Assembly: GCA_016866255.1 (NCBI GenBank)
Contig: VGMY01000008.1
Location: forward strand, 16,266 to 80,265
DNA length: 64,000 bases
Direction of reading: 5' to 3'
DNA from: Bacteroidota bacterium
GTDB taxonomy: Bacteria > Bacteroidota > Bacteroidia > Flavobacteriales_D > Crocinitomicaceae
Shown here: positions 1 to 13,726 of the stretch, piece by piece
Layout: each line of letters starts with the position of its first letter
Position numbering within the stretch: position 1 is the first letter of the stretch
Program-made: the position numbers and the translations under genes
Notes under the pieces: model-generated
Database searches by the model: none
What the model was told of the DNA's origin: nothing
The model's input: only the letters and a program-made list of their open reading frames with translations

Positions 1-3000
1 CTCCGGCTCCAATAATCAACAACAAAAGGAATCCAAACAATACTCTCAAGTATTTTTTATCGGTAAGATAACGGTAATACCATGGGAATTTGGTGCTGAA
101 TTTCTTTAGAGTTTCTCGAACGTTATCGATGTGATATTTGGTAATAAAATGTTCGATTAAGAAATCGTAGGCATTGTGTATTAAATTAACGGGCTTGTGT
201 TTGATGATTTGCGAAAGCTGAAAATCAACCGTTAATTGATAAAGTCCTATCTTTTTTCCTTCGGCGTTGGGAAGATTTTTTACAATGGCCGAAATTTCAT
301 CTTTCGATTTACCCTCCGCAAAACGAATTTCGGAATTTAATTCGTATAATTTTTCGAGGGTTTCCGGTTTATTCAGCGAAAGCCAATAGAAGTATTTTTC
401 GTAGAACGAAGACCTTACCGTATTGGAAACGGGATCATCCCCAAGTGCGTCTACTTTATCCTTGAGTTCCTGCCAGTCGAAAGCCACTGAGCTATTAATC
501 AATTGATTGCATGTAGTAATGTATTGATTTTGGAGTTTCGATTCATTGCCCGTTTCACTCTCTTCCAGAAGCGCTTTAATTTCCTTTCGGAAAAAGGCCA
601 TTCGGTTTTTATAATAGGTCTTAAATCCTGAAAAAACGTCTTTAAGTCTCACTTGGTAATACAGTGGCAGGCGGTCCACCAACGACAAAATGCCGCCCTG
701 TCCAGTAAGCGCTTCGTATTGTTTAAGACTTAATTCAATTTGACTTTCAACATCATTTACCGGCAAAGAAATTTCGTCGGAAATGTTCGGAATAAAGGCA
801 GCGATTTTCTCGCGAAGTGGTGCGGTATCAAACCGATCATCGTATACGGGAACTAATTTTAATTGATTTAGAATTTCCATCACGAGACCCAAGCTTTCCT
901 CCAGTTCTTCGGTATCGTTGAAGTTGATGTACAAACTAATCAACCGTGCCAATTGAAAGATTAATGCGTTCAATCCTAGGATGTATTCGTCTTCCTTGGT
1001 TGCTGGATTTTGGTGACACACCACTTCCATTTGAGCAAAGCGATTTAAGCGAATGAAGAGCATCTCGAGTGAACCTAATTCCTCGAACAGTTTAAGTTCG
1101 TTGATAAAAGGCTCAGGGACGGCTAATAAACCATTGTCTTCAGTTAAGTTAAGGTTTTCGATGTTTTTAATGATCCATCTGGTCTGATCGAACGGTAAAT
1201 TCGGCAAAGATTTTACATCCAAGTCGAGTAAACATTTGATCAACCTTTGACGTTCAATAGACTTGGCACTTGACGAATTCTCGTTCTTATTGGTAGCAGC
1301 AATTTTACCGATAATGTCGTATTTTGCCTTGCGTAAATTTTTGCAATTTTCCCCAAAAAGTTGTTTAACTATTTGTGGTTTATTTTCCGAAAAATAGGTG
1401 GTTAATTTTTCAAGGGATTTACGGGAGTTTGCGTTCAACTGAACATCGAAGATTTGCTTAAAATCGGTCTTTTGGAATTCGCGCAAAGCCTCCATACTCA
1501 ATGCCCCCGGATTGTCCATTTCGAGCAAGTGGAATAAATCGTCCGCATAGTTCTTGATGCTGTTATACGAATACAAGGGTATCTCTTCAAAGAAAGGTTC
1601 ATCCCATTGTTCGTATTCAATGGCATCCACTAGGTCCGAACAGTCGGAAGATATTTTTACGTTACCTGTAAAAAACGTTTGAATGGACTGAGGAGAAAAC
1701 GCCTGACTGAATACGCTCTGATAGGCCAATAAGGAGTAAAACAAATCGGAATTCTTGATGTCCTTTTCGATTTTTATGAAGAGCAACGAAAACGATTTTA
1801 CTGGTAGGCTTTTGCTCGCATCGAGCATGGTTCTTGCGAAGGTCGGATTGATGTAGGGCTCCAACTTTTCAATTAGCTCGTTTTTTTGGTCGTCAAATGC
1901 CCTTGAGTGAAAAAAGGAAAATCCTTCCGCAATGTATTTCGCTAGCAAAGCACTCCAATGACGAACTTTTACAATAAAGGCATACTGGGAAAAGGAAATC
2001 CGATGGAGTTCCATCATGAAATCTTTGATGCGATCCGAATTGATAAATACGTCGTTGCTGGGTTCGGTCACCAATGCTTCAATATGGTTTCCTGCCGTTT
2101 CCACCCATTCTTTAATGCTTTGCACATTTCGTTCGCTTAAGTCATGCGTATGGTCAACATAGGAGTTCAACAGAAATTGAACCTGTTGTACGCCCAATCC
2201 AATGTGGTATGCGTCAATCTGGGCATGCAGTGAGGCATTGTCGTTTGTTTTGTTGAAATAGGGCCGTTCGTTCAATGGAAGTTCTTGCGCCGCTGACAAT
2301 CCTTCTTGCGATTCAACACCTTCCGACGCTAACTTAAACTTTTGACCGTATTCATTCCACAAGCGATAGGCAAAGATGGAGGCATCAAGGGTTTGGTGGT
2401 CCAACAAGCTTCCGGCTCGGGGAACGTCGATGATGGTGAAATTGTGGGTTCCACGTCCATCATACCATGGGTCGTTTCGGTGAAATCCAACCCTCGGGGT
2501 GCCTTCACTGCCTTTTACCATGGACTCGATCGCTGCCGTTAGTTCCGGATCATATTTGTGGGCTAAAAGGCCTTTGATTTCCAAACTGTCTATGTACAAT
2601 CCCAATCCTTTTAGGTGATATGGGAGGTTGGAAGGAACGCTGATGATGGATTTATTAGGATAGTGCAAGCATGTGAGAACAAACCCTCTTTTAAACAAGG
2701 TATTTCGACGATCGCCGCGCACCCAATATTTCCACAGGAAACTCTTGGCCTCTTTTGAAATGATGACTTCAACCTCGTCGAATCCTCTGGTCTCGGCGTT
2801 GTAAAGTTCCACAATTCCAGTAACTGAGTTTTTAAAATCTTCTGCGTACTGATGCGCATCGTTGATGATTTTGTCGCAATGAGGTTTCAGGCTTTCAACC
2901 TCTTCAAAGCCTTCGTTTGTCCAGGGGTTTTCTTCTTTTGCTGTTACCTTTATTACTGCTTCGATGAAAGACAATCCGTCTCGGAGGAGGGTTTCGTTGA

Positions 3001-3520
3001 ACCCTTGCGTAAAGGCAATGCCGTAATCAATGTTGGACGTATGGCTTAACCAGAGCGAAGCAATACCAACGGGATGTTCTGGATCGAGGATGAGTTTTCC
3101 TAAATCCACCATGCTAACATAATCGCAAAATAAGCCATCGTATGCACTGAACAGTTGGCCTTCGAGATACTTTTGAGCAAAATAAACTGCACTTATCGCA
3201 TCCAAATCGGGCAAGAAATGCGTCACAATATGCATTTCATCCTTGCCGAGGCAATGTCCCAGATAGGTTTCCGCATGTTGAACAACAATGGACGCAACGC
3301 ACTGGTTACTGTATTCACAACCGGGCTGATGATGGTCGATAATTCCGGGTTGAAGTAAGTTGCCTGTGTCCAAAATGACCGTCTGATCCGCAGGAAGTTT
3401 CAATTCCACAGCGTTGGGATTGTCCCGCGTACCAGCATTGTATTCTACCTTAAACGTGTTTTCTTCAAGGTCATGAACCGCTTTGGCGCCCGGGGGGATA
3501 AAATGGTAATGAAACTTCAT
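1..3520 (-). CDS. Very large hypothetical protein, N-terminal 1173 aa only (C-terminus lies left of the window). It has N-terminal DHH/DHHA1-like phosphoesterase motifs, a long helical body and a hydrophobic helix at the window edge.
   Basis: Not in the supplied ORF track because no stop lies inside the window. Manual reverse-complement translation from ATG 3520..3518 stays open for 1173 codons down to position 1. An in-frame TAA lies 16 codons upstream with no alternative start between. N-terminus is MKFHYHFIPPGAKAVHDLEE. Motifs: VILDTG-x9-IIDHHQ (DHH codons 3329..3337), THFLPDLDAISA (3188..3220) and DGRGTH (2444..2461). LRVLFGFLLLLIIGAG is encoded at 2..49. No P-loop seen. Confidence 0.8.
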   Translation of the reverse strand, partial: MKFHYHFIPPGAKAVHDLEENTFKVEYNAGTRDNPNAVELKLPADQTVILDTGNLLQPGIIDHHQPGCEYSNQCVASIVVQHAETYLGHCLGKDEMHIVTHFLPDLDAISAVYFAQKYLEGQLFSAYDGLFCDYVSMVDLGKLILDPEHPVGIASLWLSHTSNIDYGIAFTQGFNETLLRDGLSFIEAVIKVTAKEENPWTNEGFEEVESLKPHCDKIINDAHQYAEDFKNSVTGIVELYNAETRGFDEVEVIISKEAKSFLWKYWVRGDRRNTLFKRGFVLTCLHYPNKSIISVPSNLPYHLKGLGLYIDSLEIKGLLAHKYDPELTAAIESMVKGSEGTPRVGFHRNDPWYDGRGTHNFTIIDVPRAGSLLDHQTLDASIFAYRLWNEYGQKFKLASEGVESQEGLSAAQELPLNERPYFNKTNDNASLHAQIDAYHIGLGVQQVQFLLNSYVDHTHDLSERNVQSIKEWVETAGNHIEALVTEPSNDVFINSDRIKDFMMELHRISFSQYAFIVKVRHWSALLAKYIAEGFSFFHSRAFDDQKNELIEKLEPYINPTFARTMLDASKSLPVKSFSLLFIKIEKDIKNSDLFYSLLAYQSVFSQAFSPQSIQTFFTGNVKISSDCSDLVDAIEYEQWDEPFFEEIPLYSYNSIKNYADDLFHLLEMDNPGALSMEALREFQKTDFKQIFDVQLNANSRKSLEKLTTYFSENKPQIVKQLFGENCKNLRKAKYDIIGKIAATNKNENSSSAKSIERQRLIKCLLDLDVKSLPNLPFDQTRWIIKNIENLNLTEDNGLLAVPEPFINELKLFEELGSLEMLFIRLNRFAQMEVVCHQNPATKEDEYILGLNALIFQLARLISLYINFNDTEELEESLGLVMEILNQLKLVPVYDDRFDTAPLREKIAAFIPNISDEISLPVNDVESQIELSLKQYEALTGQGGILSLVDRLPLYYQVRLKDVFSGFKTYYKNRMAFFRKEIKALLEESETGNESKLQNQYITTCNQLINSSVAFDWQELKDKVDALGDDPVSNTVRSSFYEKYFYWLSLNKPETLEKLYELNSEIRFAEGKSKDEISAIVKNLPNAEGKKIGLYQLTVDFQLSQIIKHKPVNLIHNAYDFLIEHFITKYHIDNVRETLKKFSTKFPWYYRYLTDKKYLRVLFGFLLLLIIGAG

Positions 3521-3536
3521 GGTTTGGTTGAGTCGA

Positions 3537-3544
3537 CAAAGGTA
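3537..3544 (-). promoter_or_regulatory. Candidate Bacteroidota sigma-A -7 box (TAccTTTG on the minus strand) for the giant minus-strand gene
   Basis: Exact match to the TAnnTTTG consensus, 16 nt upstream of the ATG at 3520. Confidence 0.35.
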
Positions 3545-3598
3545 GATAAATTGAACAAATAATGATGTTTATGTGGTATTAAGATGGATCAAAATAGG

Positions 3599-3606
3599 TA
3601 TGTTTG
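3599..3606 (+). promoter_or_regulatory. Candidate -7 box (TAtgTTTG) for the HEPN-discoidin gene
   Basis: Exact TAnnTTTG match 14 nt upstream of ATG 3621. It argues for the 3621 start rather than the track's GTG at 3573. Confidence 0.35.
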
Positions 3607-3620
3607 CCTTACAGAATATT

Positions 3621-6600
3621 ATGAACATGAATATCGCGAACCAACTCCCAAAGAACCTTGAGAAAACGATCAGCGATTTAGCGAGGGCACGTGAAAAAGC
3701 CGCCAAACAAAAGTATTTATTGGACCTTGGTGAAAGCCTCGTAATGCACTTATGTTCGTTTGTTTTAGGCGAGTACAAAGAAGCGGGCTTGGTTTCAATC
3801 GAACTTGAGAAGTCGTTTTTAAAGAATGGTAAAAATGTCAGTTTTGGAATTTACCTGGGTTGGCTTCGTGAGTCCTCCAAGTTTTTAAATCAACAAAAGC
3901 ACCCCTCAGAAATTCAAGATCTCTTACACGGATCAAACGAACTTCTTGAATTGTCGAAATTCGTTAAATCCTATGGTGCACTGAAATTGGCGGTAGAGAA
4001 CGATCATACGAATTATGCGGAGCTCATTTCGCAAGCCCTAAAGAATAACCTTGGAAAGGTAAATTTGTTAGAGTTTTTTGATGTTTTTATTCAACTTAGG
4101 AACCGCGTTGCACATCCGCACAAGGAGGTGAAAGGAAAAGTAGTAAGCTGGCCGTTTAGCGAGGAATATTTCGATGCAACAAACCCTTATTTGGAAAGCG
4201 CTTTGAATCAGGTAATTAATGAACTAGGGAAGATTTGGGAGTTTCGTCAGTTTGTGGTGGACAGCAATGAGCAAGGAATGCTTACCTTGATTAGCGAAGA
4301 CAATAACGAACCCATTGAGGTAGCTAAAACGGCTGATTATCCAGAAGGTATTAAGGTATTTGCGGCGAATGACACCGTGTTGCTTTCGGATTGGAAAATG
4401 CTACTTCGCGCGGGGGAGGAAGCCGTTGAGAAAATACGTCAGGAAGAAGAGGAGCTACGAAATAAGGCAACCGTAGAGGACTTGAAACATTCCATTGAGG
4501 CGGCACTAGACGATCAACAAATCAGCCTTGAAGAAATGAATTTCTTTGAGTCGCTTGGAAAAACAAAATTGGGACTTTCCAAAGAGCAAATTAAGCATTT
4601 GATCATGGAGGTAGCTCAAAAAATGGGCATTGAAGATCCCTTTCCTGAGGTAGATAAACGCTTTATTGAGGTGGTCGACCATGCTATAACCACGAAGACT
4701 TACAATGAATTTTTGTTGAAACTTACCGGACAACAATACGGGGTGGATAACGAAACGTTCGATAAGGTATTTTTGGAACGAACCTTTGCCTTGAATGTTG
4801 ACCCGGATGAGGTTCGAAGGAATAAGGTACTGCAGTTTACCTTAGAGGAACTGACCGATTTTCAAGGATTAATGGCAGCCCATAAGTGGTTGATGGGTAT
4901 GGGAGTTTTTAGACACGCAACCAAGGAGAGCATCTTTAAAATAAGGGAAGATTCGTATAAATTCGGCACCAAAGAATATTGGCATCGAACGGCCTTTGCC
5001 GCTTTAGAACATTTCGTTCAAAACCGTTTAAATAAGTTATGCTTGGACGAAGATTCCGAATGGGATACCAAACAAAACAATTGGCAAATTGGCGTTATGA
5101 CGGGGTATGCTTGGTGTACTTTGTATCCTAAGAATCTGCCCAGCAAAAAGATTCTTGCGTTGCATTTTTCGCTTTATTCTTCCGGTGGTGCAGCCATAGG
5201 TTATCTTCCCGATTGGAAAGATTACAAAGACTTGGATAATTATGGACTCCTTCTCAATGTGTTTGTAGAACATTTGAAGTCTTTCGCCATGGAATATGCC
5301 GATGATTTAAAAAAATACCCCAACCTTGTGTTATGGGACAGTTTGAACAATAACACCTATTACTCCTTTACCGAGTCGATGAGCCGTTTTCCTTGGTTTT
5401 ACGACCATTGTTACGGTTTCGATCAAATTCAATTCTACCATAAAGTGGAGGAGATTATTGCTAATCCATCAGTGCTTATCGACAGCTTCGATATCGCGTT
5501 TAATTTGTTTAAAGGGTTGTTTGAAGCGGTCAATCGCGATTATCGCAACATGTTGAACGATTCGTACTTAATTACTGAAAATGAAGCGCTGATTAGGAGT
5601 AAATTAGTCAGTCTTGAGGACCTTTTGACAGAGGTTGGTTTGTCCGGTGCCCCAGAAGAGGACCTTGTTTCAGAACAACCAGCGGAAGAAGAGGAGCGTG
5701 ATAAGGAAAACCAAGATTCAACCGACATCCAAGTTGCAGATGACGGCTTAAAAGGCAGCGTGCATGTTGGGTATTTTGCCCGTGAATTTAAACCAAAAGT
5801 CAAAGGCTATCCTTTGTGCGTGAGTTTTCAAATCAAACAAGACTATTTTAACAACGAACTCAATTATCTAATGTATATTTCATGCGCTGGATATTTGCAA
5901 CCTGAAATCCATGAACCTGTAGAAAGAATCCTTGAGTCCTTGGAAGGACTGTCGTTTGAAAATGCTCGTTTCTACTTTAAACGAAGTAAGTTTTTAGTCC
6001 AATGTAAGGTGGAGGATTTGGAACGATTTGATCCTCGACCCTTAACGGTCTTCTTTTTGAACGCTCTTGCAGAGGCATGTGCAAAATCGTACGTTTCGTT
6101 TCTGGGCTTGAAGTTAACCCAACCTGTGTTATCCCGCTTTGGTAATGCCGTGGTGGATGCATTGGAGGAAATCAATCCGTCACTTCAAAGTCTATTCTCT
6201 AATACCATTACCTGCGAGCGCAATTGGATGAAAGGGTATCGATTCTTGGATTATGTATATTCCGGCAAGGGGGTAGCGCATTGGTTGGGCTGGGGATTGG
6301 AGTTTCAGCAAGATCAAATGATGGCAGGAGTAGTGTTGCACGTCGGAGATTCCCTAAAAGGAGCGCAATTGATGGAACAAATGCACAACAAAGCCAATAT
6401 TGATGCTGCGTGGAAATTGGTAACCAAAGGCGAGGCTTCGTTGAACGATCCTCACTGGATCTTGGGCAATTCTTCGGCAGTCATGACCTCTTCTTCCGAT
6501 TATAACCGCAATTACAAAGCCCACCACGCTTTAATTTCAAACGAAAAAACGTACTGGTGTGCTGCTAAGCAAGACGACAAACAATGGTGGCAAGTGGAAC

Positions 6601-6986
6601 TTCCCGAGGCCATGACCATTTCTCAACTTGTTCTTAAAGGTGCACCTCACGGTAAAAGTTATGTCACACGTTTTAATCTCATGTATTCCGTGGATAAAAA
6701 GAATTGGCAAACGCTCAGTGATTTTAATGGATTGAACGATGGGTTTTCCACCTTAGAACTCACCTTTGAAAGCGCATTCAACGCGAAACTCATTAAAATT
6801 CTTCCAGTAGAATTTGTGGGTTGGCCCGGCATTAGAGTGGACTTTTGGGGTAAAAAAATCGTTCCCTCCAAAATTGAATTGCAGCATTGGGTTCCGGTGA
6901 ACAATGAACAGGAATTAGCAACGGCCGTGGCTGCATTTGAACATAACATCAAGGAGCTTAAAGCCTTTAAAGGCTTGGGTTTATAG
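3621..6986 (+). CDS. Large cytoplasmic protein with an N-terminal HEPN-type (Abi-like) domain, a helical/unknown middle with an acidic linker, and a C-terminal F5/8 type C (discoidin) domain
   Basis: Continuous ORF; the track gives 3573..6986 from a GTG, and in-frame ATGs lie at 3600, 3621 and 3627. VSFGIYLGWLRE starts at 3840. LRNRVAH (an R-x4-H HEPN motif) is at 4098..4115. An acidic low-complexity linker spans about 5646..5747. The C-terminus YWCAAKQDDKQWWQVELPEAMTISQLVLKG...YVTRFNLMYSVDKKNWQTL...AKLIKILPVEFVGWPGIRVDFWG (about 6465..6850) matches the discoidin pattern. No signal peptide and no Walker A motif. Confidence 0.85.
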   Translation: MNMNIANQLPKNLEKTISDLARAREKAAKQKYLLDLGESLVMHLCSFVLGEYKEAGLVSIELEKSFLKNGKNVSFGIYLGWLRESSKFLNQQKHPSEIQDLLHGSNELLELSKFVKSYGALKLAVENDHTNYAELISQALKNNLGKVNLLEFFDVFIQLRNRVAHPHKEVKGKVVSWPFSEEYFDATNPYLESALNQVINELGKIWEFRQFVVDSNEQGMLTLISEDNNEPIEVAKTADYPEGIKVFAANDTVLLSDWKMLLRAGEEAVEKIRQEEEELRNKATVEDLKHSIEAALDDQQISLEEMNFFESLGKTKLGLSKEQIKHLIMEVAQKMGIEDPFPEVDKRFIEVVDHAITTKTYNEFLLKLTGQQYGVDNETFDKVFLERTFALNVDPDEVRRNKVLQFTLEELTDFQGLMAAHKWLMGMGVFRHATKESIFKIREDSYKFGTKEYWHRTAFAALEHFVQNRLNKLCLDEDSEWDTKQNNWQIGVMTGYAWCTLYPKNLPSKKILALHFSLYSSGGAAIGYLPDWKDYKDLDNYGLLLNVFVEHLKSFAMEYADDLKKYPNLVLWDSLNNNTYYSFTESMSRFPWFYDHCYGFDQIQFYHKVEEIIANPSVLIDSFDIAFNLFKGLFEAVNRDYRNMLNDSYLITENEALIRSKLVSLEDLLTEVGLSGAPEEDLVSEQPAEEEERDKENQDSTDIQVADDGLKGSVHVGYFAREFKPKVKGYPLCVSFQIKQDYFNNELNYLMYISCAGYLQPEIHEPVERILESLEGLSFENARFYFKRSKFLVQCKVEDLERFDPRPLTVFFLNALAEACAKSYVSFLGLKLTQPVLSRFGNAVVDALEEINPSLQSLFSNTITCERNWMKGYRFLDYVYSGKGVAHWLGWGLEFQQDQMMAGVVLHVGDSLKGAQLMEQMHNKANIDAAWKLVTKGEASLNDPHWILGNSSAVMTSSSDYNRNYKAHHALISNEKTYWCAAKQDDKQWWQVELPEAMTISQLVLKGAPHGKSYVTRFNLMYSVDKKNWQTLSDFNGLNDGFSTLELTFESAFNAKLIKILPVEFVGWPGIRVDFWGKKIVPSKIELQHWVPVNNEQELATAVAAFEHNIKELKAFKGLGL

Positions 6987-7057
6987 GGGGTGTTGATCAT
7001 TAGATGTTGAATAACTTAAATTTTTAAGTACTTTCGGTGAAACAATTGTATAACGAT

Positions 7058-7543
7058 ATGAATACCCCTCCTCCCGAAGTTCCTAAAAAAGTAGAATTAA
7101 GCAAAGTCGTCATATATTCTCTGGTGGGATTATTGATTGCGGGTTTGATTTTTCTATTAGCTAAGTCATTGTTGGACCAAAAGCGCGACACGGAGCAACA
7201 AGCCAAGGCCTTTAAAGAACAAATGAAAGAATTGAAGTCAGAATTGAAAGCTATGCAACAGAATTATCGAAGCATGACGAATAAGCGCGATTCCTTACAA
7301 GGCTGGGTAGACTATTACACACCAATGCGCGCAGTTATTTTCAATGCAAAGCTAAGAGACCGCGTCCTCGAGATTACGGAGTTTAAGCCTGGAGATGTCG
7401 CTAAATTTAAAGTGGACTCCACCAGTGCAGTTATCGTGGAGGTAAAAGTAGGAGGAAATGACCTCAGTTATTACGTAAATTATTTGGTGAAAAATCGCAA
7501 AGGACAACTTATCGAAGTTTCGCCTTACGAATTGTATCGTTGA
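7058..7543 (+). CDS. Small single-pass membrane protein with a coiled coil and a small C-terminal beta-rich domain (hypothetical)
   Basis: The track ORF starts at GTG 7037; the first ATG is 7058 (MNTPPPEVPKK). TM helix VVIYSLVGLLIAGLIFLLA, then the heptad-like EQQAKAFKEQMKELKSELKAMQQNY, then KPGDVAKFKVDSTSAVIVEVKVGG...LIEVSPYELYR. Same strand as the HEPN gene, 71 nt downstream, with no hairpin between. Confidence 0.6.
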   Translation: MNTPPPEVPKKVELSKVVIYSLVGLLIAGLIFLLAKSLLDQKRDTEQQAKAFKEQMKELKSELKAMQQNYRSMTNKRDSLQGWVDYYTPMRAVIFNAKLRDRVLEITEFKPGDVAKFKVDSTSAVIVEVKVGGNDLSYYVNYLVKNRKGQLIEVSPYELYR

Positions 7544-7585
7544 TGGGGAGGATTAATGGAAATTCAAGCGTTTGAGGTTTTGAGT

Positions 7586-8443
7586 TTAATGCCTCATTAA
7601 CACCTGCTTCGTTCCTTCTTCGATTCGTTCACAGATTTCATCTAAAGGCAGATCGTTGTCATCCCTTCCGAAGGGGTCTTCTATTTCCTCGGCCAATATC
7701 TCCATGGATACCAGGGCATAAAACACAAACGTTGAAATCAATACCGACCAATATTCGAATAATTCTACAAAAGCAAGCGGCATGGTCACTACGTAAATGA
7801 AAATGAATTTTTTGAAAAATAAACTGTAAGAAAATGGAATTGGGGTATTCAAAATTCTTTCGCAAGCCCCTAAGCTGTCGATGAGATTATCTAAATGCCT
7901 ACTGAGTTGTTGCCATTGTATCGAGTCAATTCGGTCGGTGACCCGTAATTCATGCAGTGATTTACGCAGCTCATGCGCAATCCACAACGGTTGATTCCCT
8001 GCTTTTGATGATTCATCCAGTGGAAAGGATAATTCAAGTTTATTGCGTCTTAAATGTTCCTTCATGCTCTTAGAAAAAGCTGTGATAAGTTCCACGAATT
8101 GGCTCCGTTCAGCAGTGTTTAATTCGAGGGAGGAGAGCAGACTTGATAAATTGCGGGTATCATTCACCACTGAACCCCAAAGTTTGCGTCCTTCCCACCA
8201 CCGGTCATAGGCCGTATTCGTTCGAAATACCAAAAGCAATGATATCACAAATCCCAATAAGGAATAGACCGAAGTTAAATTCTTTAATACGGATGAGGTA
8301 GGATAAAAATGCAGTTCCAAGAAAGTGATGATGGCAGTTAATGCGGCAATGTATATAAGCTCTTTCCATAAAATACGAACGGTGTCGCTTTTGTGAAAAG
8401 AAAATATAAACGTCAACCAGCTCTTGGGGTTGTATTTTATCAT
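7586..8443 (-). CDS. Bestrophin/YneE (UPF0187) family anion channel homologue
   Basis: 285 aa with several TM helices. RTNTAYDRWWEGRKLWG and the C-terminal EDPFGRDDNDLPLDEI are typical of bacterial bestrophin homologues. Confidence 0.75.
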   Translation of the reverse strand: MIKYNPKSWLTFIFSFHKSDTVRILWKELIYIAALTAIITFLELHFYPTSSVLKNLTSVYSLLGFVISLLLVFRTNTAYDRWWEGRKLWGSVVNDTRNLSSLLSSLELNTAERSQFVELITAFSKSMKEHLRRNKLELSFPLDESSKAGNQPLWIAHELRKSLHELRVTDRIDSIQWQQLSRHLDNLIDSLGACERILNTPIPFSYSLFFKKFIFIYVVTMPLAFVELFEYWSVLISTFVFYALVSMEILAEEIEDPFGRDDNDLPLDEICERIEEGTKQVLMRH

Positions 8444-9477
8444 TCCTTGATAAAGTGCTTTTTAAGTTTTACCTGATCTTTATTGGTTTCAATAAAATAT
8501 AAACCATTCGAAATATTTCTGAGATTCAACCTCGTGCCTGTGAGTGTAGCTATTTTTTCAACCATTACGTTTTGTCCATAGGCATTAAGCAAGGAGATTT
8601 GTTCGGGAAGAGCGTTTTCAATAATTATATGATCTGTACATGGGTTGGGAAAGATATTTACCGCAGGAAGCGCTTCTTCCTCTATTCCCACCCCAATTCC
8701 ATCTAGTTCCGTCCATCTGAAGATTTTGGGAGCGCCAAGCGTATCGAAACTCATTTCCGCAATGGCCAATTTGCCACCTTTCCCCACCCAAGAATAGCTG
8801 CCGGTAGTGCCCGAGCTCGTGCTCACCAAACTCCAGGTAGGTGGAAATATCGGAAGAGCCCATATGGAATCGGTGTAGTTGTCTGTGGTGTAAATGCGTA
8901 ATACATCGTAGGTTCCTTGCGGTGTGGTGATTTGCCCCCACGCATCGGTGGTATCATGCACCATCGAAGAACGCTTAAAACGTATTTGACTTACTAAGGG
9001 ATTGATTGCCGCTCCGGGTACAATCACATCAATCACGTACAAATCGTTGAAACTTGAACCAAAGGTTCTCGGAAATTGATGCAAGGTTAAATCAGGGTTG
9101 AACACCGCATTGATGATTCCTGAACCTAATAAATCTCCCGAAAATCCTTGAGTGGTGAACGATTGAGCACTTTTGTTAAAGTACAAATAACTCGCGTTGT
9201 CGTTGGTCATGGCCATGTTGGAATTCCCAAATTGATTTGCGCTCGGCGTTGAAGCTACCGATACCACGCTGGTATTCTCCGAGACAACATAGTTGCTAGT
9301 TGCCGTGAAGTTCCACGTCTGGTTCGGTCCGCTGCCTCCCGGACCAGGCAATACCGTCATCGTATCGGATTTTCGCGGAATGTTGTCGCCCACGGAAGGC
9401 ATGTCGTTTTGATCCAAGGTGATTTGGGCACTTAAGGTCCCAGCCATCATTCCAGCAAGCAGTAAAAAAGGTTTCAT
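8440..9477 (-). CDS. Secreted protein with a T9SS C-terminal sorting domain
   Basis: Signal peptide MKPFLLLAGMMAGTLSAQ. The C-terminal ~80 aa (VNIFPNPCTDHIIIE...ISNGLYFIETN) resembles the Por secretion tail. 4-nt overlap with the downstream gene. Confidence 0.7.
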   Translation of the reverse strand: MKPFLLLAGMMAGTLSAQITLDQNDMPSVGDNIPRKSDTMTVLPGPGGSGPNQTWNFTATSNYVVSENTSVVSVASTPSANQFGNSNMAMTNDNASYLYFNKSAQSFTTQGFSGDLLGSGIINAVFNPDLTLHQFPRTFGSSFNDLYVIDVIVPGAAINPLVSQIRFKRSSMVHDTTDAWGQITTPQGTYDVLRIYTTDNYTDSIWALPIFPPTWSLVSTSSGTTGSYSWVGKGGKLAIAEMSFDTLGAPKIFRWTELDGIGVGIEEEALPAVNIFPNPCTDHIIIENALPEQISLLNAYGQNVMVEKIATLTGTRLNLRNISNGLYFIETNKDQVKLKKHFIKE

Positions 9478-9497
9478 AGGTAAAAGTTTGCTTAAAG

Positions 9498-10520
9498 TTA
9501 AGCAATTTTTCGGAATCGATAAACGCCCATGCCAAGCAATGCGAGCAATATCACGGCAAACAACAAGTGGGCAGTCTGAACTAATCCGGGTAGATCAAAA
9601 TAGGCCAATAAGACTCCCGCACTGAGTTCCATGCCTAATACCACAAAAGCCCAACGAATTACCGAAATTTTATCCCCTTGCTCATTCTTCCAGGCTAAAT
9701 AAGCCAGGAGCAGTAACACCAACCAACTGAAACTGCGGTGAACGAAGAATTCTATTCCGAAATAATCGCTCCATGCTTCCCTGCCTAATCCCTGCTTTGT
9801 CAAGGCATCGATGTATTCTCGTACCTGGGTGCCAAGAAACATTTGGTAGAAAGTAATGGCAAACACCGCCCACCAAGTATAGAAGGTCAGCTTGTTGACA
9901 GGAATCTTCACTCCATGCTTCGGCGAAATCCGATACATCACGTAAAGCTGTATGAGTAAAATGACCAGGGCAAGGAATAAATGCACGGTGATTGTCCAAG
10001 GCACCAAGTTCGTGGCCACTACAATGGAACCAAACCATGCCTCCACGGCAATGAGCACGAGGTTGATGGCTGATAGGGTTAACAACCATCGCTTTCGGTA
10101 GAAAAGTACGCACCAAAAGAAACCTGCTAGCATCAAGTTGCCCGCAAGAAATCCGAGCAAACGATTGATGTATTCCGTGTAGGTTCGGGCAGCATTAAAA
10201 GGTTCTTCCTGCAGTAGGGTGGGGTCCTTTTCGATTTTTTGAGCGGTTTCTTCCATCCCAAATCTTCGCAAGAAGGCACAAAACTTCACCGCTTTTTTTG
10301 CGCGTTTCTCACGAAAAATGGATAAATAATTGGAAGGAAGCTGCGTTTCGGCGGTCGGAGGAATCCATTTTCCAAAACATTTTGGCCAATCTGGACATCC
10401 CATACCCGATCCGGTAATGCGCACAAAACTGCCGGCGCAAATCACCAAAAATAAGGCAACTAGGGTAACCCACTGAAAGCGAATAAATCGTTGAGTGTAC
10501 ATCATGCAACAGAACAGCAT
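9498..10520 (-). CDS. ctaA: Heme A synthase (COX15/CtaA family)
   Basis: Polytopic membrane protein with the N-terminal GSGMGCPDWPKCFG motif characteristic of COX15/CtaA. Confidence 0.8.
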   Translation of the reverse strand: MLFCCMMYTQRFIRFQWVTLVALFLVICAGSFVRITGSGMGCPDWPKCFGKWIPPTAETQLPSNYLSIFREKRAKKAVKFCAFLRRFGMEETAQKIEKDPTLLQEEPFNAARTYTEYINRLLGFLAGNLMLAGFFWCVLFYRKRWLLTLSAINLVLIAVEAWFGSIVVATNLVPWTITVHLFLALVILLIQLYVMYRISPKHGVKIPVNKLTFYTWWAVFAITFYQMFLGTQVREYIDALTKQGLGREAWSDYFGIEFFVHRSFSWLVLLLLAYLAWKNEQGDKISVIRWAFVVLGMELSAGVLLAYFDLPGLVQTAHLLFAVILLALLGMGVYRFRKIA

Positions 10521-10539
10521 TTATAACGTTTGCATGGCA

Positions 10540-11286
10540 TCAAAGTTCATTTTTTGAGGTGCCTTCTTTCGAACTCAAATACCGAATCACCTCCGCTGCA
10601 CCATGCAATCCAAACAAAGCTGGCATATAGCTGATGGTACCGTAAAAGGATTTTTTGAACTTGGTTCCGTCGGTCATCTTGAGCGATTTTTTGTCTTGAA
10701 GTTCCGAAGAAAATACCGCCTTAATTCCTCTTAGTGAAGCCCCTTTGCGCTTGATGCGTTTTTTGATGTGCGAACCCAGCTTGCAATTGTGGGTTTCGAC
10801 CAAGTTGACCACTTGCACTGTGGAAGGATCCACTTTCCCGCCGGCTCCCAAATGGGTTATTACCTTGATTTTTTGCTTTTTGCAGCAAAGCAACCACGCA
10901 AGTTTGGGCGATACCGAGTCGATGCAGTCCATTACATAGTCCGGTTGGTATTCGTTGAGCAATTCCCAAACCCTTTCTGGAACTACGAACTCTTCGAGAA
11001 CATTGACTTTTGCGTTGGGATTGATGTCCTTGATGCGCTCAGCTAAAACGACCGCCTTATTTTTTCCGATGGTGGAATCCAAGGCCGTTAGCTGACGGTT
11101 TTTGTTGGTGGGGTCAAAGACGTCCCCGTCAACAAGGGTGAGGGTGCCTACGCCAGCCCGTGCAATGAATTCTCCAGCAAACGATCCAATGCCACCGAGT
11201 CCAACAATCATGACGTGCGATTTCGCCAGTTTTTCAAGTTTTTTTGAACCAATCAACAGTTCCGACCTTTCCAACCAATGATTCAT
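10540..11286 (-). CDS. tcdA: tRNA threonylcarbamoyladenosine dehydratase (ThiF/HesA family)
   Basis: MNHWLERSELLIG..., Rossmann motif VMIVGLGGIGSFAGEFIARAGVGTLTLVDGD. Start placed at ATG 11286, giving an ATGA overlap with the tatD-like stop. The track's 352-aa version extends through the upstream gene. Confidence 0.8.
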   Translation of the reverse strand: MNHWLERSELLIGSKKLEKLAKSHVMIVGLGGIGSFAGEFIARAGVGTLTLVDGDVFDPTNKNRQLTALDSTIGKNKAVVLAERIKDINPNAKVNVLEEFVVPERVWELLNEYQPDYVMDCIDSVSPKLAWLLCCKKQKIKVITHLGAGGKVDPSTVQVVNLVETHNCKLGSHIKKRIKRKGASLRGIKAVFSSELQDKKSLKMTDGTKFKKSFYGTISYMPALFGLHGAAEVIRYLSSKEGTSKNEL

Positions 11287-11897
11287 GGCCCAAAAATAGC
11301 CAAAAAATTCTGTTCGATTTGCTGAGATAAAACCGCAAGATCGAATCCAGCAAGGCTGCAAAAACGCTGGTAAACCCACTGAATCTCTTCGTCCTTGTCG
11401 TCGGTTTCCAACAACAAACGCTTGAGGGGTATTTTGGTCAACAATGGATGCATGGCAGGGTTCGATAATGCCGAGGGACCAATGCTGAGGTATACTGGGG
11501 TTTCTAACAACCGTGGGAATTGTTTTGGTTGGTTGAAGCCGTGCAGAATCCACGGAGTTACTTGATGTGCGTTCTGCAGGGCATAAAACGCTTCCCAAGC
11601 CTGAACGATATGGAAAATAACCGGTTTATGGTGCTTCGCGGCCAGGCATAATTGCTCCTCAAGCACGCTTTGCTGAATTTCCATACTTGGGCCTTTGAGC
11701 CGGTCCAAACCCACCTCGCCCAGGGCTTTGCATGCAGGATGTTCCAAGGCAATTTCCAACGCTGGCAGGAGTGCCGAGTCCGCAAACCAAGGATGTATTC
11801 CTGAGGAATGAAATTGGTTCAGCGGAGCATCGACGGCTTGTACAATGGCGACTTCATGGGAGCGTAAACGGTGGGTATGAACGTTGTAAAAAACCAT
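11283..11897 (-). CDS. TatD-family metal-dependent hydrolase (short form)
   Basis: 204 aa with NVHTH near the N-terminus, GEVGLD, and ETD near the C-terminus. Confidence 0.7.
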   Translation of the reverse strand: MVFYNVHTHRLRSHEVAIVQAVDAPLNQFHSSGIHPWFADSALLPALEIALEHPACKALGEVGLDRLKGPSMEIQQSVLEEQLCLAAKHHKPVIFHIVQAWEAFYALQNAHQVTPWILHGFNQPKQFPRLLETPVYLSIGPSALSNPAMHPLLTKIPLKRLLLETDDKDEEIQWVYQRFCSLAGFDLAVLSQQIEQNFLAIFGP

Positions 11898-11983
11898 GTG
11901 AAAACAAATTTAAGCTCTTGTTAACAAAATTGAAGGAGTCGTTTGAATTTTTGTATATTCGGGCTCAACAAAACTCAATTATT

Positions 11984-13726
11984 ATGGAACAAGCAGCGCA
12001 AAATGGTCACCCAAAAGGGTTGTATCTATTATTTGTAACGGAAATGTGGGAGCGTTTCAGTTATTATGGGATGAGAGCCATTTTAATGCTTTTCATGACG
12101 AAAGCGTTGTTGTTTGACGCTGAATTTGCCTCGGGCCTTTACGGAAATTACACCGGCCTGGTCTACTTAACCCCGCTCATCGGTGGATACATTTCCGATA
12201 GATATTGGGGTAATCGAAAATCCATTTTCGTTGGAGGAATTATTATGGCCATTGGACAATTTTTATTGTTTTTCTCTGCCAGTTCTTTAGGCACTTCAGT
12301 GGCCCCATTATTGTTCTATTTTGGTTTATTGTCATTGATTATTGGAAATGGGTTTTTTAAACCGAATATTTCCACCATGGTCAATCAATTGTACGCACCG
12401 GGGGATAAGCGAGTGGATGGAGCTTTTTCCATTTTTTACATGGGGATCAACCTGGGGGCTTTCTTCTCTCCCTTGGTTTGTGGAACTTTAGCTGAAAAAG
12501 TGGATTACAAGTGGGGATTCCTAGCCGCAGGAATCGGGATGATTATCGGGGTAGTGGTATTCGAATTGTTCAAGAATAAATACATCGTTTCCGCAGATGG
12601 TAGAGTCGTGGGAGGGAAACCGGAGCTTTTAGGAACGCCTGTAGCGGAAAAAAGCAACGAAAATAACGCAGAAAAGCCCTCTAATTATTGGGCCCGAATT
12701 GGCTTGTGGTTAGCGGTGTATGCCGTATTGTGGTTCGTATTCATGCAATTGGTTGGGTTTAATTTTGTATCTACTTTGATTTTTGCTACCTCCATTGCAG
12801 CATCGGGTTTCGTCATAACGGACCCTTCTTTATCCAAAATTGAAAGGTCTAGAATTATTGTCATTTACATTATTGCATTTTTTGTGATTTTCTTTTGGTC
12901 TGCCTTTGAACAAGCAGGGGCTTCTTTAACGCTTTTTGCTGACCAACAGACGGATAGAACCATTTTTAATTGGGAGATGCCAGCATCGTATTTTCAATCG
13001 GTTAATCCATTAGCTATTATCATTTTTGCGCCCTTATTTGCAGTTCTATGGGGATATTTGGGAAAAAGAAACCGTGAGCCGGCAAGTCCTGTTAAACAAG
13101 CGATTGGTCTATTTTTATTGGCGATTGGTTATTTCATCATTGCCGTTGGAGTTTCAGGTGCGGAGGGGTCAACAAAAACCAGCATGTTTTGGTTGTTGAG
13201 CATGTACCTTGTCCATACCTTGGGGGAGCTTTGCCTATCCCCAATTGGACTGTCCATGGTTGCTCGATTGGCACCTCTTCGTTTGGGCTCGTTGTTAATG
13301 GGGATATGGTTCATGAGCAATGCCATGGCCAATGATTTTGCGGGCATGTTGTCTAAACTTTACCCTGAAAAATATGTAAGCGTAGAATTGGTGAAACAGG
13401 AGGAAAACAACTATAAGGTAGAACTGCTTTCCCGAGACAAAAAGCAACAAGACAAACTCCTTGCGGAGGTTGAAAATTTGGGAGGTATGCAATGTGTAGC
13501 TATTTCCTCGGTCGCGTTTTCAGAGATAAAGGATAAAAAATCCCAAGAAACGGCCTATCAGTCTATCACAGCAACCGCAAAAGTTAAGGAGAAGTCGTTC
13601 TTTGGAATGAAAGTGAATTCCTTGTACAGTTTCTTCATGGTGTTTGTGTTCATGGGAGGGGTTGCTGCTGGTTTACTTTACTTATTGCAAAAGAAACTTC
13701 TGGGCATGATGCATGGAATACGTTAA
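11984..13726 (+). CDS. Proton-dependent oligopeptide transporter (POT/PTR2 family), paralogue 1
   Basis: Starts at ATG 11984 (MEQAAQNGHPKGLYLLF). POT signature FVTEMWERFSYYGMR; many TM helices. The track ORF from 11732 overlaps the divergent upstream gene. Confidence 0.85.
   Translation: MEQAAQNGHPKGLYLLFVTEMWERFSYYGMRAILMLFMTKALLFDAEFASGLYGNYTGLVYLTPLIGGYISDRYWGNRKSIFVGGIIMAIGQFLLFFSASSLGTSVAPLLFYFGLLSLIIGNGFFKPNISTMVNQLYAPGDKRVDGAFSIFYMGINLGAFFSPLVCGTLAEKVDYKWGFLAAGIGMIIGVVVFELFKNKYIVSADGRVVGGKPELLGTPVAEKSNENNAEKPSNYWARIGLWLAVYAVLWFVFMQLVGFNFVSTLIFATSIAASGFVITDPSLSKIERSRIIVIYIIAFFVIFFWSAFEQAGASLTLFADQQTDRTIFNWEMPASYFQSVNPLAIIIFAPLFAVLWGYLGKRNREPASPVKQAIGLFLLAIGYFIIAVGVSGAEGSTKTSMFWLLSMYLVHTLGELCLSPIGLSMVARLAPLRLGSLLMGIWFMSNAMANDFAGMLSKLYPEKYVSVELVKQEENNYKVELLSRDKKQQDKLLAEVENLGGMQCVAISSVAFSEIKDKKSQETAYQSITATAKVKEKSFFGMKVNSLYSFFMVFVFMGGVAAGLLYLLQKKLLGMMHGIR

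Follow-up and report, generated by a model that had tools for sequence, protein, structure and literature searches.

Four motifs, always in the same order, have been the defining mark of the DHH superfamily of phosphoesterases since 1998. Its canonical DHH/DHHA1 members, among them NrnA, RecJ, PggH and family II pyrophosphatase (PF01368 and PF02272), combine an Asp/His ligand set with two lobes. In the GdpP cyclic di-AMP phosphodiesterases, such a canonical DHH/DHHA1 module stands at the C-terminus, preceded by N-terminal membrane helices, a PAS domain and a degenerate GGDEF domain. The effectors of Pycsar systems sense their signal with domains that bind cyclic nucleoside monophosphates, not with DHH-like heads. 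NrN, a DHH enzyme of type III-B CRISPR systems, which work through SAM-AMP signalling, has its gene beside that of the membrane effector CorA or forms a fusion with it (PMC10600005). Here we describe a gene at positions 2..3520 of the minus strand in a stretch of 64,000 nucleotides (the window) from Bacteroidota bacterium, family Crocinitomicaceae (NCBI GenBank assembly GCA_016866255.1, contig VGMY01000008.1, positions 16,266 to 80,265 of the forward strand). Its full product, as predicted, is a ~1,420-residue inner-membrane protein composed of an N-terminal head, a ~750-residue spacer and a six-helix C-terminal domain. The head is probably a divergent member of the DHH/DHHA1 phosphoesterase superfamily and a putative phosphodiesterase, with the full metal-ligand set retained and the motif-I unit transposed.

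The head resembles the canonical DHH/DHHA1 enzymes in its Asp/His ligand set, its two lobes and its similarity by both Pfam and Foldseek. It differs from them in its motif order, II-III-I-IV, and in the spacing from motif II to motif III, which is 9 residues against ~20-30. It also adds a four-strand N-terminal meander, carries PWYDGRGxH in place of GGGH and contains an invariant FLWKYWVRGD. With NrN-CorA it shares a DHH-fold enzyme tied to a membrane effector: NrN is the best structural match of the head in the PDB, and mid-size relatives of the head end in a weakly CorA-like stalk followed by two helices. Unlike in that system, no cas genes lie within 8-10 kb of five loci carrying the long, six-helix form or among the open reading frames (ORFs) at 3.5-15 kb of the window. 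NrN itself has the canonical motif order in ~250 aa, whereas the six-helix domain and 750-aa spacer of the long form show no CorA similarity by PDB sequence, fold or hidden Markov model (HMM), and the partner here is a HEPN-like/discoidin protein instead of Cas10. GdpP offers a second likeness, a DHH/DHHA1 module that is membrane-tethered within a multidomain protein and handles nucleotide signals, with the order of parts reversed: in the window protein the head comes first and the membrane domain follows at the C-terminus, and Pfam detects no PAS or GGDEF domain. Pycsar is approached by relatives of the head that are fused to TIR-like domains or membrane tails and by others beside PycC-like cyclases; in contrast, no cyclase lies in or near the window gene, and the cyclase link is seen in 3 of ~30 distant loci.

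The head, spanning aa 1-395 (2336..3520, minus strand), was delimited by phmmer and family-profile boundaries, an AF2 model and Foldseek. It comprises a four-strand β meander (aa 2-43), a DHH-like lobe (~aa 44-230) and a DHHA1-like lobe (~aa 233-395). Eight motif residues are retained across 204 members of all architectures: D51 in 92% (188/204), D62 in 97%, H63 in 88%, H64 in 96%, H101 in 95%, D105 in 94%, D107 in 99.5% and D139 in 93%. In an alignment of 33 sequences, D62 and D107 are invariant, and D51, H63, H64, H101, P104, D105, D139 and H359 are conserved in at least 90%. These metal-ligand positions are kept while the family members are otherwise 23-30% identical; conservation among the motif residues is lowest at H63 and H359, where Phe or Gln can stand instead. 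An earlier note on this DNA had proposed DHH-like motifs in this protein and had singled out D51, D62-H63-H64, D105, D107 and H359, all of which are conserved in both the 33- and the 204-member alignments.

The AF2 model of the head, built from the 33-sequence alignment, reaches a pLDDT of 90.7 and a pTM of 0.87, and DHH proteins rank first among its structural matches in two libraries, in keeping with the DHH reading of the earlier note. In the PDB, Foldseek places DHH proteins at every one of the first ten ranks (four NrN entries, RecJ and RecJ-like; E 0.015-0.16), followed at rank 11 by the C-terminal domain of alanyl-tRNA synthetase (2zvf), which is probably DHHA1-like. Against BFVD, a library of predicted viral structures, the top match is annotated as 'DHH family phosphohydrolase' (E 4.7e-5, probability 0.94), and another annotated DHH protein appears at rank 12. 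The eight motif residues may form one common metal site. At the level of profiles, the match to Pfam PF01368 (DHH; curated threshold 28.1 bits) is present and weak: 31 of 33 diverse family heads match at E <= 0.1, the best of them (P0056) at 31.3 bits, above the threshold, and PF01368 is a precomputed assignment in four homologues. The Pfam alignment begins at motif I, from profile positions 2-3 onward. PDB sequence searches with the whole protein and with the head profile returned nothing significant.

A DHH-type fold is expected to place its active-site residues where strands end and where helices begin or end, and the four motifs of the head occupy such positions in the model. The motif II-like VILDTGN (aa 48-54; 3359..3379, minus strand), recognized by conservation and the AF2 model, places D51 at the C-terminal end of strand 47-50. 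Motif III, IIDHHQ (aa 60-65; 3326..3343, minus strand), holds D62-H63-H64 at the end of a short strand (60-61) and is identified by conservation, hhalign to RecJ and HMMER to 9r7o. Motif I, THFLPDLDAISA (aa 100-111; 3188..3223, minus strand), contributes H101, D105 and D107 and is supported by Pfam DHH, hhalign to RecJ and conservation; H101 ends strand 95-101, and PDLD opens helix 106-119. The motif IV-like YVSMVDLGKL (aa 134-143; 3092..3121, minus strand), assigned from conservation and the model, lies at the end of helix 126-139 and carries D139 and G141, the latter invariant in alignment A1; the family form of this motif is 'YVxEVDSGKL'. Most of the positions first assigned to these motifs stand, including the DHH triplet at nucleotides 3329..3337, IIDHHQ at aa 60-65, DGRGTH at aa 354-359 (2444..2461) and THFLPDLDAISA at aa 100-111. 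Two needed adjustment: VILDTG is aa 48-53 (3362..3379), not 47-52, and motif I ends at nucleotide 3223 instead of 3220.

The order II(51)-III(62-64)-I(101-107)-IV(139) holds in all members. Compared with a canonical enzyme, the head lacks ~115 residues at the place between the helices of motifs I and IV, and ~70 residues with motifs II and III sit upstream instead. The correspondence was traced with hhalign by comparing the head profile with a 9-sequence RecJ profile, alternative local alignments allowed. One alignment (E 0.0043) pairs head residues 61-141, with 92-112 left out, with RecJ 147-212; it extends from DHH as far as the motif IV helix and leaves D139 itself unpaired. A second pairs head 93-121 with RecJ 60-88, which is motif I (E 0.026), and a third pairs head 277-326 with RecJ 343-391, the 'KGSGRS' part of DHHA1 (E 0.7). 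The same swap appears in HMMER against the DHH protein 9r7o, where head 74-109 corresponds to chain residues 8-43 and head 51-63 to 109-121. Against the single E. coli RecJ, and in the default run against the 9-sequence profile, hhalign recovered only motif I or a weak DHHA1 stretch. The profile of the mid-size relatives (alignment A4), residues 131-204, aligned weakly to residues 176-247 of 4py9/3w5w, in stretches that taken alone do not clear the E-value cut. By these individually weak alignments, the motif-I strand-helix unit is apparently transposed to a place between motif III and the motif IV helix.

The second lobe carries two family-specific motifs, both recognized in the alignments. 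FLWKYWVRGD (aa 261-270; 2711..2740, minus strand) has K264, R268 and D270 invariant and was one of two peptide patterns that fetched all related loci. NDPWYDGRGTH (aa 349-359; 2444..2476, minus strand) has P351, W352, D354 and G355 conserved at ~100% and H359 at ~82% (168/204). GGGH is absent from this lobe, with PWYDGRGxH in its place, and aa 277-391 align weakly to the DHHA1 domain of RecJ. DGRGTH lies ~51 residues past the LKGLG stretch, which resembles KGSGRS and aligns with the DHHA1 domain of RecJ, ~20 of these residues being a variable insert, compared with 30 residues from KGSGRS to GGH in RecJ. The early suggestion that DGRGTH sits at the DHHA1 GGGH site is compatible with this distance, and the agreement extends to position and to nothing beyond it.

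The head recurs well outside the long form, in a large family. In an HMMER scan of its profile against 1.84 billion representatives, clustered at 50% identity, at least 1,421 clusters reach E <= 0.001, and 441 of them reach E <= 1e-30. Neither Pfam nor NCBIfam holds a dedicated model for the family, every source that names its members calls them 'hypothetical', and no description of a permuted DHH domain or of a DHH/HEPN/transmembrane system was found in the literature searched. The long six-helix form is a small clade of ~15 clusters. Elsewhere, heads stand alone in proteins of 340-400 aa, or occur at the C-terminus of Ser/Thr kinases, some of which then carry a TIR-like (FxsC/ThcB4-type) domain, or are joined to a TPR-cyclase (fusions are exemplified by P0076, P0093, P0103 and P0127). 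In P0103, the head is followed by a domain that reads as TIR-like by sequence, without an NCBIfam match, and the N-terminus appears HD-like by eye. Judged from these fusions, the head is evidently a mobile module.

A class of relatives of 800-900 aa (P0065, P0067, P0115 and ~30 others; alignment A4) combines an N-terminal head with two C-terminal helices. Against the PDB, the profile of this class matches CorA in its top seven hits (E ~0.1), spanning the C-terminal stalk, the first transmembrane helix, the loop and the second transmembrane helix, with DHH proteins next; no cas genes are present in the one locus of this class that was looked at (L008). Kinship between these CorA-like tails and the long-form spacer and membrane domain was considered and rejected, as no HMM cross-matches were obtained between them. 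PycC-like cyclase genes lie beside three kinase fusions, 4 nucleotides downstream in two Planctomycetota loci (L050 and L051) and near the fusion in a third (L049). A Pfam/PADLOC census of 98 neighbour proteins of distant relatives revealed no common neighbour except these three cyclases. One kinase fusion (P0066 context) adjoins VMAP/MoxR/DUF4062 conflict-system genes. In a Woesearchaeota metagenome-assembled genome (MAG), an ORF at 3427..13191 of locus L030 encodes at least 3255 aa, runs off the locus end and carries a head at ~860-1255; among the architectures seen, it would be the largest and the sole one from an archaeon.

The gene itself is read in the minus-strand frame 3520..2, which translates as 1173 sense codons, free of stops to the window edge. 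The earlier note had described exactly this frame from ATG 3520 and had pointed out its absence from the ORF track; both statements are borne out, the listing excluding ORFs that run off the source end. A stop codon lies 17 codons 5' of ATG 3520 in the same frame, and ATG 3520 is taken as the correct start because the homologues share the beginning MKFHYHFIP. Database searches returned 67 homologues of the window protein, the full-length ones measuring 1311-1430 aa. The closest, P0001, is 92.2% identical across all 1173 window residues and is 1420 aa long; the window therefore lacks ~247 C-terminal codons and holds the 5' 83% of the protein-coding gene (1173 of about 1420 codons; 2..3520, minus strand), with the stop and these last codons to its left. 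Upstream of ATG 3520, no match to the Bacteroidetes-type promoter TTTG-N17-21-TAnnTTTG was found. A lone TACCTTTG of the Bacteroidetes -7 box type (TAnnTTTG) at 3537..3544 (minus strand), 16 nucleotides 5' of the ATG, is not significant, and the nearest TTTG upstream of it stands at only 11 nucleotides versus a consensus of ~19.

A full-length alignment of 34 homologues contains two conserved blocks, the N-terminal ~395 and the C-terminal ~280 residues. Between them, the middle region (aa 396-1156; 53..2335, minus strand), delimited by alignment, composition and hydropathy, is poorly conserved (column conservation 0.07-0.55), low in Pro and Gly and devoid of hydrophobic segments. It has no Pfam, PDB or NCBIfam match, and its ~750 residues are confined to the long-form clade. 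Kyte-Doolittle analysis of P0001 gives six hydrophobic segments, at residues 1157-1175, 1209-1227, 1264-1282, 1295-1313, 1337-1355 and 1387-1405, and none before residue 1150. The window ends within the first of these six predicted transmembrane helices (aa 1157-1173; 2..52, minus strand), and the other five lie beyond its edge in P0001 numbering. The tethering of the body to the membrane, which had been surmised from the truncated gene, is supported by these predicted helices in the homologues. No signal peptide is present at the N-terminus, and the first helix is preceded by a stretch rich in Lys and Arg; by the positive-inside rule, the head and spacer would therefore be cytoplasmic. An AF2 model of the C-terminal 326 residues has a moderate pLDDT of 69.7, with the membrane region modelled as helices.

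Across a 79-bp divergent intergenic region (3521..3599), the long-form gene faces a partner gene of 1128 aa on the plus strand (3600..6986), identified by adjacency, alignments and Pfam. The ORF list extends this gene to GTG 3573; homologues place its true start at ATG 3600. The N-terminal ~640 aa of the partner are conserved, with an invariant LRNRVAHP at nucleotides 4095..4118, and the C-terminus forms an F5/8 type C discoidin domain (~6483..6812; Pfam F5_F8_type_C, E 2.5e-21), a usual feature of the partners. The discoidin domain would be cytoplasmic, since the partner has no recognizable signal peptide. Such a partner lies within ~30-160 bp of the long form in 16 loci and in three arrangements: divergent in the Flavobacteriales, downstream on the same strand, or upstream on the same strand. 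No partner was detectable in L020 (Saprospira) or L024 (Ignavibacteria), two loci of the long form whose flanks would suffice to show one. Nine diverse partners share the motif F-x-E/Q-L-R-N-x-x-A-H-P, with R167-N168-x3-H172 and an upstream E32 invariant. The published HEPN signature consists of Rx4-6H with a polar residue after the Arg and an upstream conserved acidic residue (PMC3710099), which the RNxxAH motif and upstream Glu of the partner fit. We treat this HEPN-like character as a lead, not an assignment. The partner profile had no match among PDB sequences, and PADLOC and NCBIfam searches with the partner gave nothing except a chance-level AriA match (E 0.022).

The nearest genomic relatives of the window are MAGs of freshwater Bacteroidota (Flavobacteriales, Crocinitomicaceae). 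The neighbours of the gene comprise the discoidin partner, a 168-aa coiled-coil ORF, a bestrophin, a protein with a type IX secretion system tail, COX15, ThiF, TatD and two PTR2 transporters, and their order is kept in relatives whose orthologue is down to 50% identical. This conserved synteny identifies the region as syntenic chromosome and not an accessory island, and the label 'accessory region' given to it earlier does not hold. The 168-aa ORF directly after the partner (7037..7543, plus strand) has only weak coiled-coil-type Pfam matches; a 168-aa counterpart (weak DUF8429) occupies the same position in L001, not in L002. Outer-membrane barrel genes of two unrelated families occur beside the pair, each in few lineages. 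A DUF481 barrel gene overlaps the 3' end of the long gene in L001 (14256..15062) and L002 (14118..14924), and a Phenol_MetA_deg barrel gene lies upstream in L006 (7042..7839) and L004 (3159..3899); a gene of the DUF481 type would fall just beyond the left edge of the window. The barrel gene was rejected as a third system component, the two families being unrelated and lineage-specific. Four loci (L018, L019, L023 and L057) carry this Bacteroidota-type gene in MAGs labelled Candidatus Planktophila lacus, Chryseobacterium gleum, Mollicutes and Bifidobacterium breve; these are short metagenomic contigs, and mis-binning or horizontal transfer could explain the labels.

Several results weigh against reading the head as a DHH enzyme in a membrane-coupled signalling or defence system. 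The window protein scores below the PF01368 threshold, with 13.6 bits at full length and 17.4 bits for the head alone. The Foldseek matches in the PDB are weak (E 0.015-0.2, TM 0.2-0.3), none falling below E 0.001, and the hhalign probabilities are low (7.9% and 1.9%; E 0.004-0.026) and come from a single template. Moving aa 44-72 behind aa 124 in silico in five members raised no DHH score (17.4 to 14.6 and 31.3 to 27.7 bits), a test that is uninformative because the Pfam match involves motif I only. For the partner, the HEPN basis consists of one motif together with weak HEPN_RiboL-PSP matches in 2 of 9 proteins (best E 0.0098). The membrane-domain model has no PDB match at E below 1 in Foldseek, and its profile has no PDB sequence match. 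Finally, the window protein has no PADLOC, NCBIfam, plasmid or phage matches (the head having been searched by tblastn against plasmids and phages), and the Flavobacteriales locus lies in a syntenic stretch of housekeeping genes, a setting that suits a core cellular role no less than defence.

The last of these points leads to the alternative that survives best, one we regard as a real possibility and still unlikely: the gene pair may do housekeeping work in the envelope or in transport in freshwater Flavobacteriales, such as the turnover of a phosphorylated envelope precursor, and not act in signalling or conflict, with the head a metabolic phosphatase tethered to a transporter-like membrane domain. 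Synteny among core genes at 50% identity, a barrel gene (DUF481 or Phenol_MetA_deg) beside the pair in several lineages, a partner discoidin domain of carbohydrate-binding type, and the lack of PADLOC matches and of any mobile-element signal would all suit such a function. However, neither protein has a signal peptide, which would leave the discoidin domain in the cytoplasm, and the barrel genes, which come from two different families, are confined to particular lineages. The distribution is also patchy across phyla, at 27-50% identity, and the head is elsewhere fused to TIR-like, kinase, cyclase and CorA-like modules, all of which count against a housekeeping role.

Less probable, and in our view distinctly unlikely, is that the head is a non-catalytic sensor of DHH fold that binds a nucleotide or metal and signals to the membrane domain or to a kinase or TIR partner. 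Loss of activity is known for some DHH-fold domains. In favour of a sensor, the head always takes the terminal place in multidomain proteins of signalling type, its GGGH is replaced, and H63 (88%) and H359 (~82%) are the least conserved of its motif residues. However, all seven or eight metal-ligand positions are kept at 88-99.5% in ~200 sequences of 23-30% identity, the pattern of an active site under selection, and the stand-alone forms of 340-400 aa would lack any partner in cis to receive a signal.

A true circular permutation, in which new termini arise by duplication and truncation and the elements otherwise remain in cyclic order, is the commonest route to such reorderings, and motifs II and III do precede motif I. 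We nevertheless consider it improbable here. No cyclic rotation turns I-II-III-IV into II-III-I-IV; motif IV and the DHHA1-like lobe keep their C-terminal place, so that only the motif-I unit has moved and the head is therefore no simple circular permutation. The spacing from II to III has shrunk to 9 residues, the canonical strands between motifs I and IV are absent in the model, and the in-silico reordering gave no gain in Pfam score. Where the earlier note had left the choice between a circularly permuted and a rearranged DHH domain, the rearranged form is supported by the II-III-I-IV order from hhalign and HMMER, and the permuted form is not. The note's remaining option, that the motifs are coincidental short matches in an unrelated fold, had in its favour that they are individually short and that the window protein falls under the Pfam threshold, and it is ruled out to near certainty by conservation in 204 members, Pfam DHH matches in 31 of 33 heads, DHH proteins as the top structural matches in two independent libraries and three separate local profile alignments that pair like motif with like.

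If the head is a rearranged DHH phosphodiesterase, as we favour, it would be an active Mn2+-type two-metal enzyme whose substrate is a small phosphodiester: a signal derived from nucleotides, or else a short product of RNA. This activity would, in the long form, be tethered through the long spacer to the six-helix membrane domain. More tentatively, the head may regulate, or be regulated together with, the membrane domain and the adjacent HEPN-like/discoidin partner. The closest working analogy is NrN with CorA, in which a DHH enzyme sets the level of a ligand that controls a membrane effector. A broader proposal, which we put forward as speculative and rather doubtful in its full extent, is that the rearranged heads constitute a large overlooked class of phosphodiesterase or sensor modules controlling membrane effectors and TIR, kinase or cyclase partners, in nucleotide- or RNA-fragment-based conflict or signalling systems that are absent from defence catalogues. 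In the Flavobacteriales, this class would be represented by a system of two genes, in which the partner would be a HEPN-like RNase with a discoidin domain as its cytoplasmic sensor.

The family would add to the DHH superfamily a branch in which the motif-I unit is transposed and the membrane architecture is new, within a large unannotated family. As modelled, it suggests that moving the motif-I unit still allows the same metal site to form, and because that unit has moved, profile methods nearly miss the family. The fusion partners belong to the vocabulary of bacterial immunity and signalling, which makes the head a good candidate for a so far overlooked module that degrades or senses signals, with a role that may be analogous to that of NrN, ring nucleases or GdpP. 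For annotation, the finding concerns a 4.3-kb gene and its partner, both currently unnamed in the genomes of freshwater Bacteroidota.

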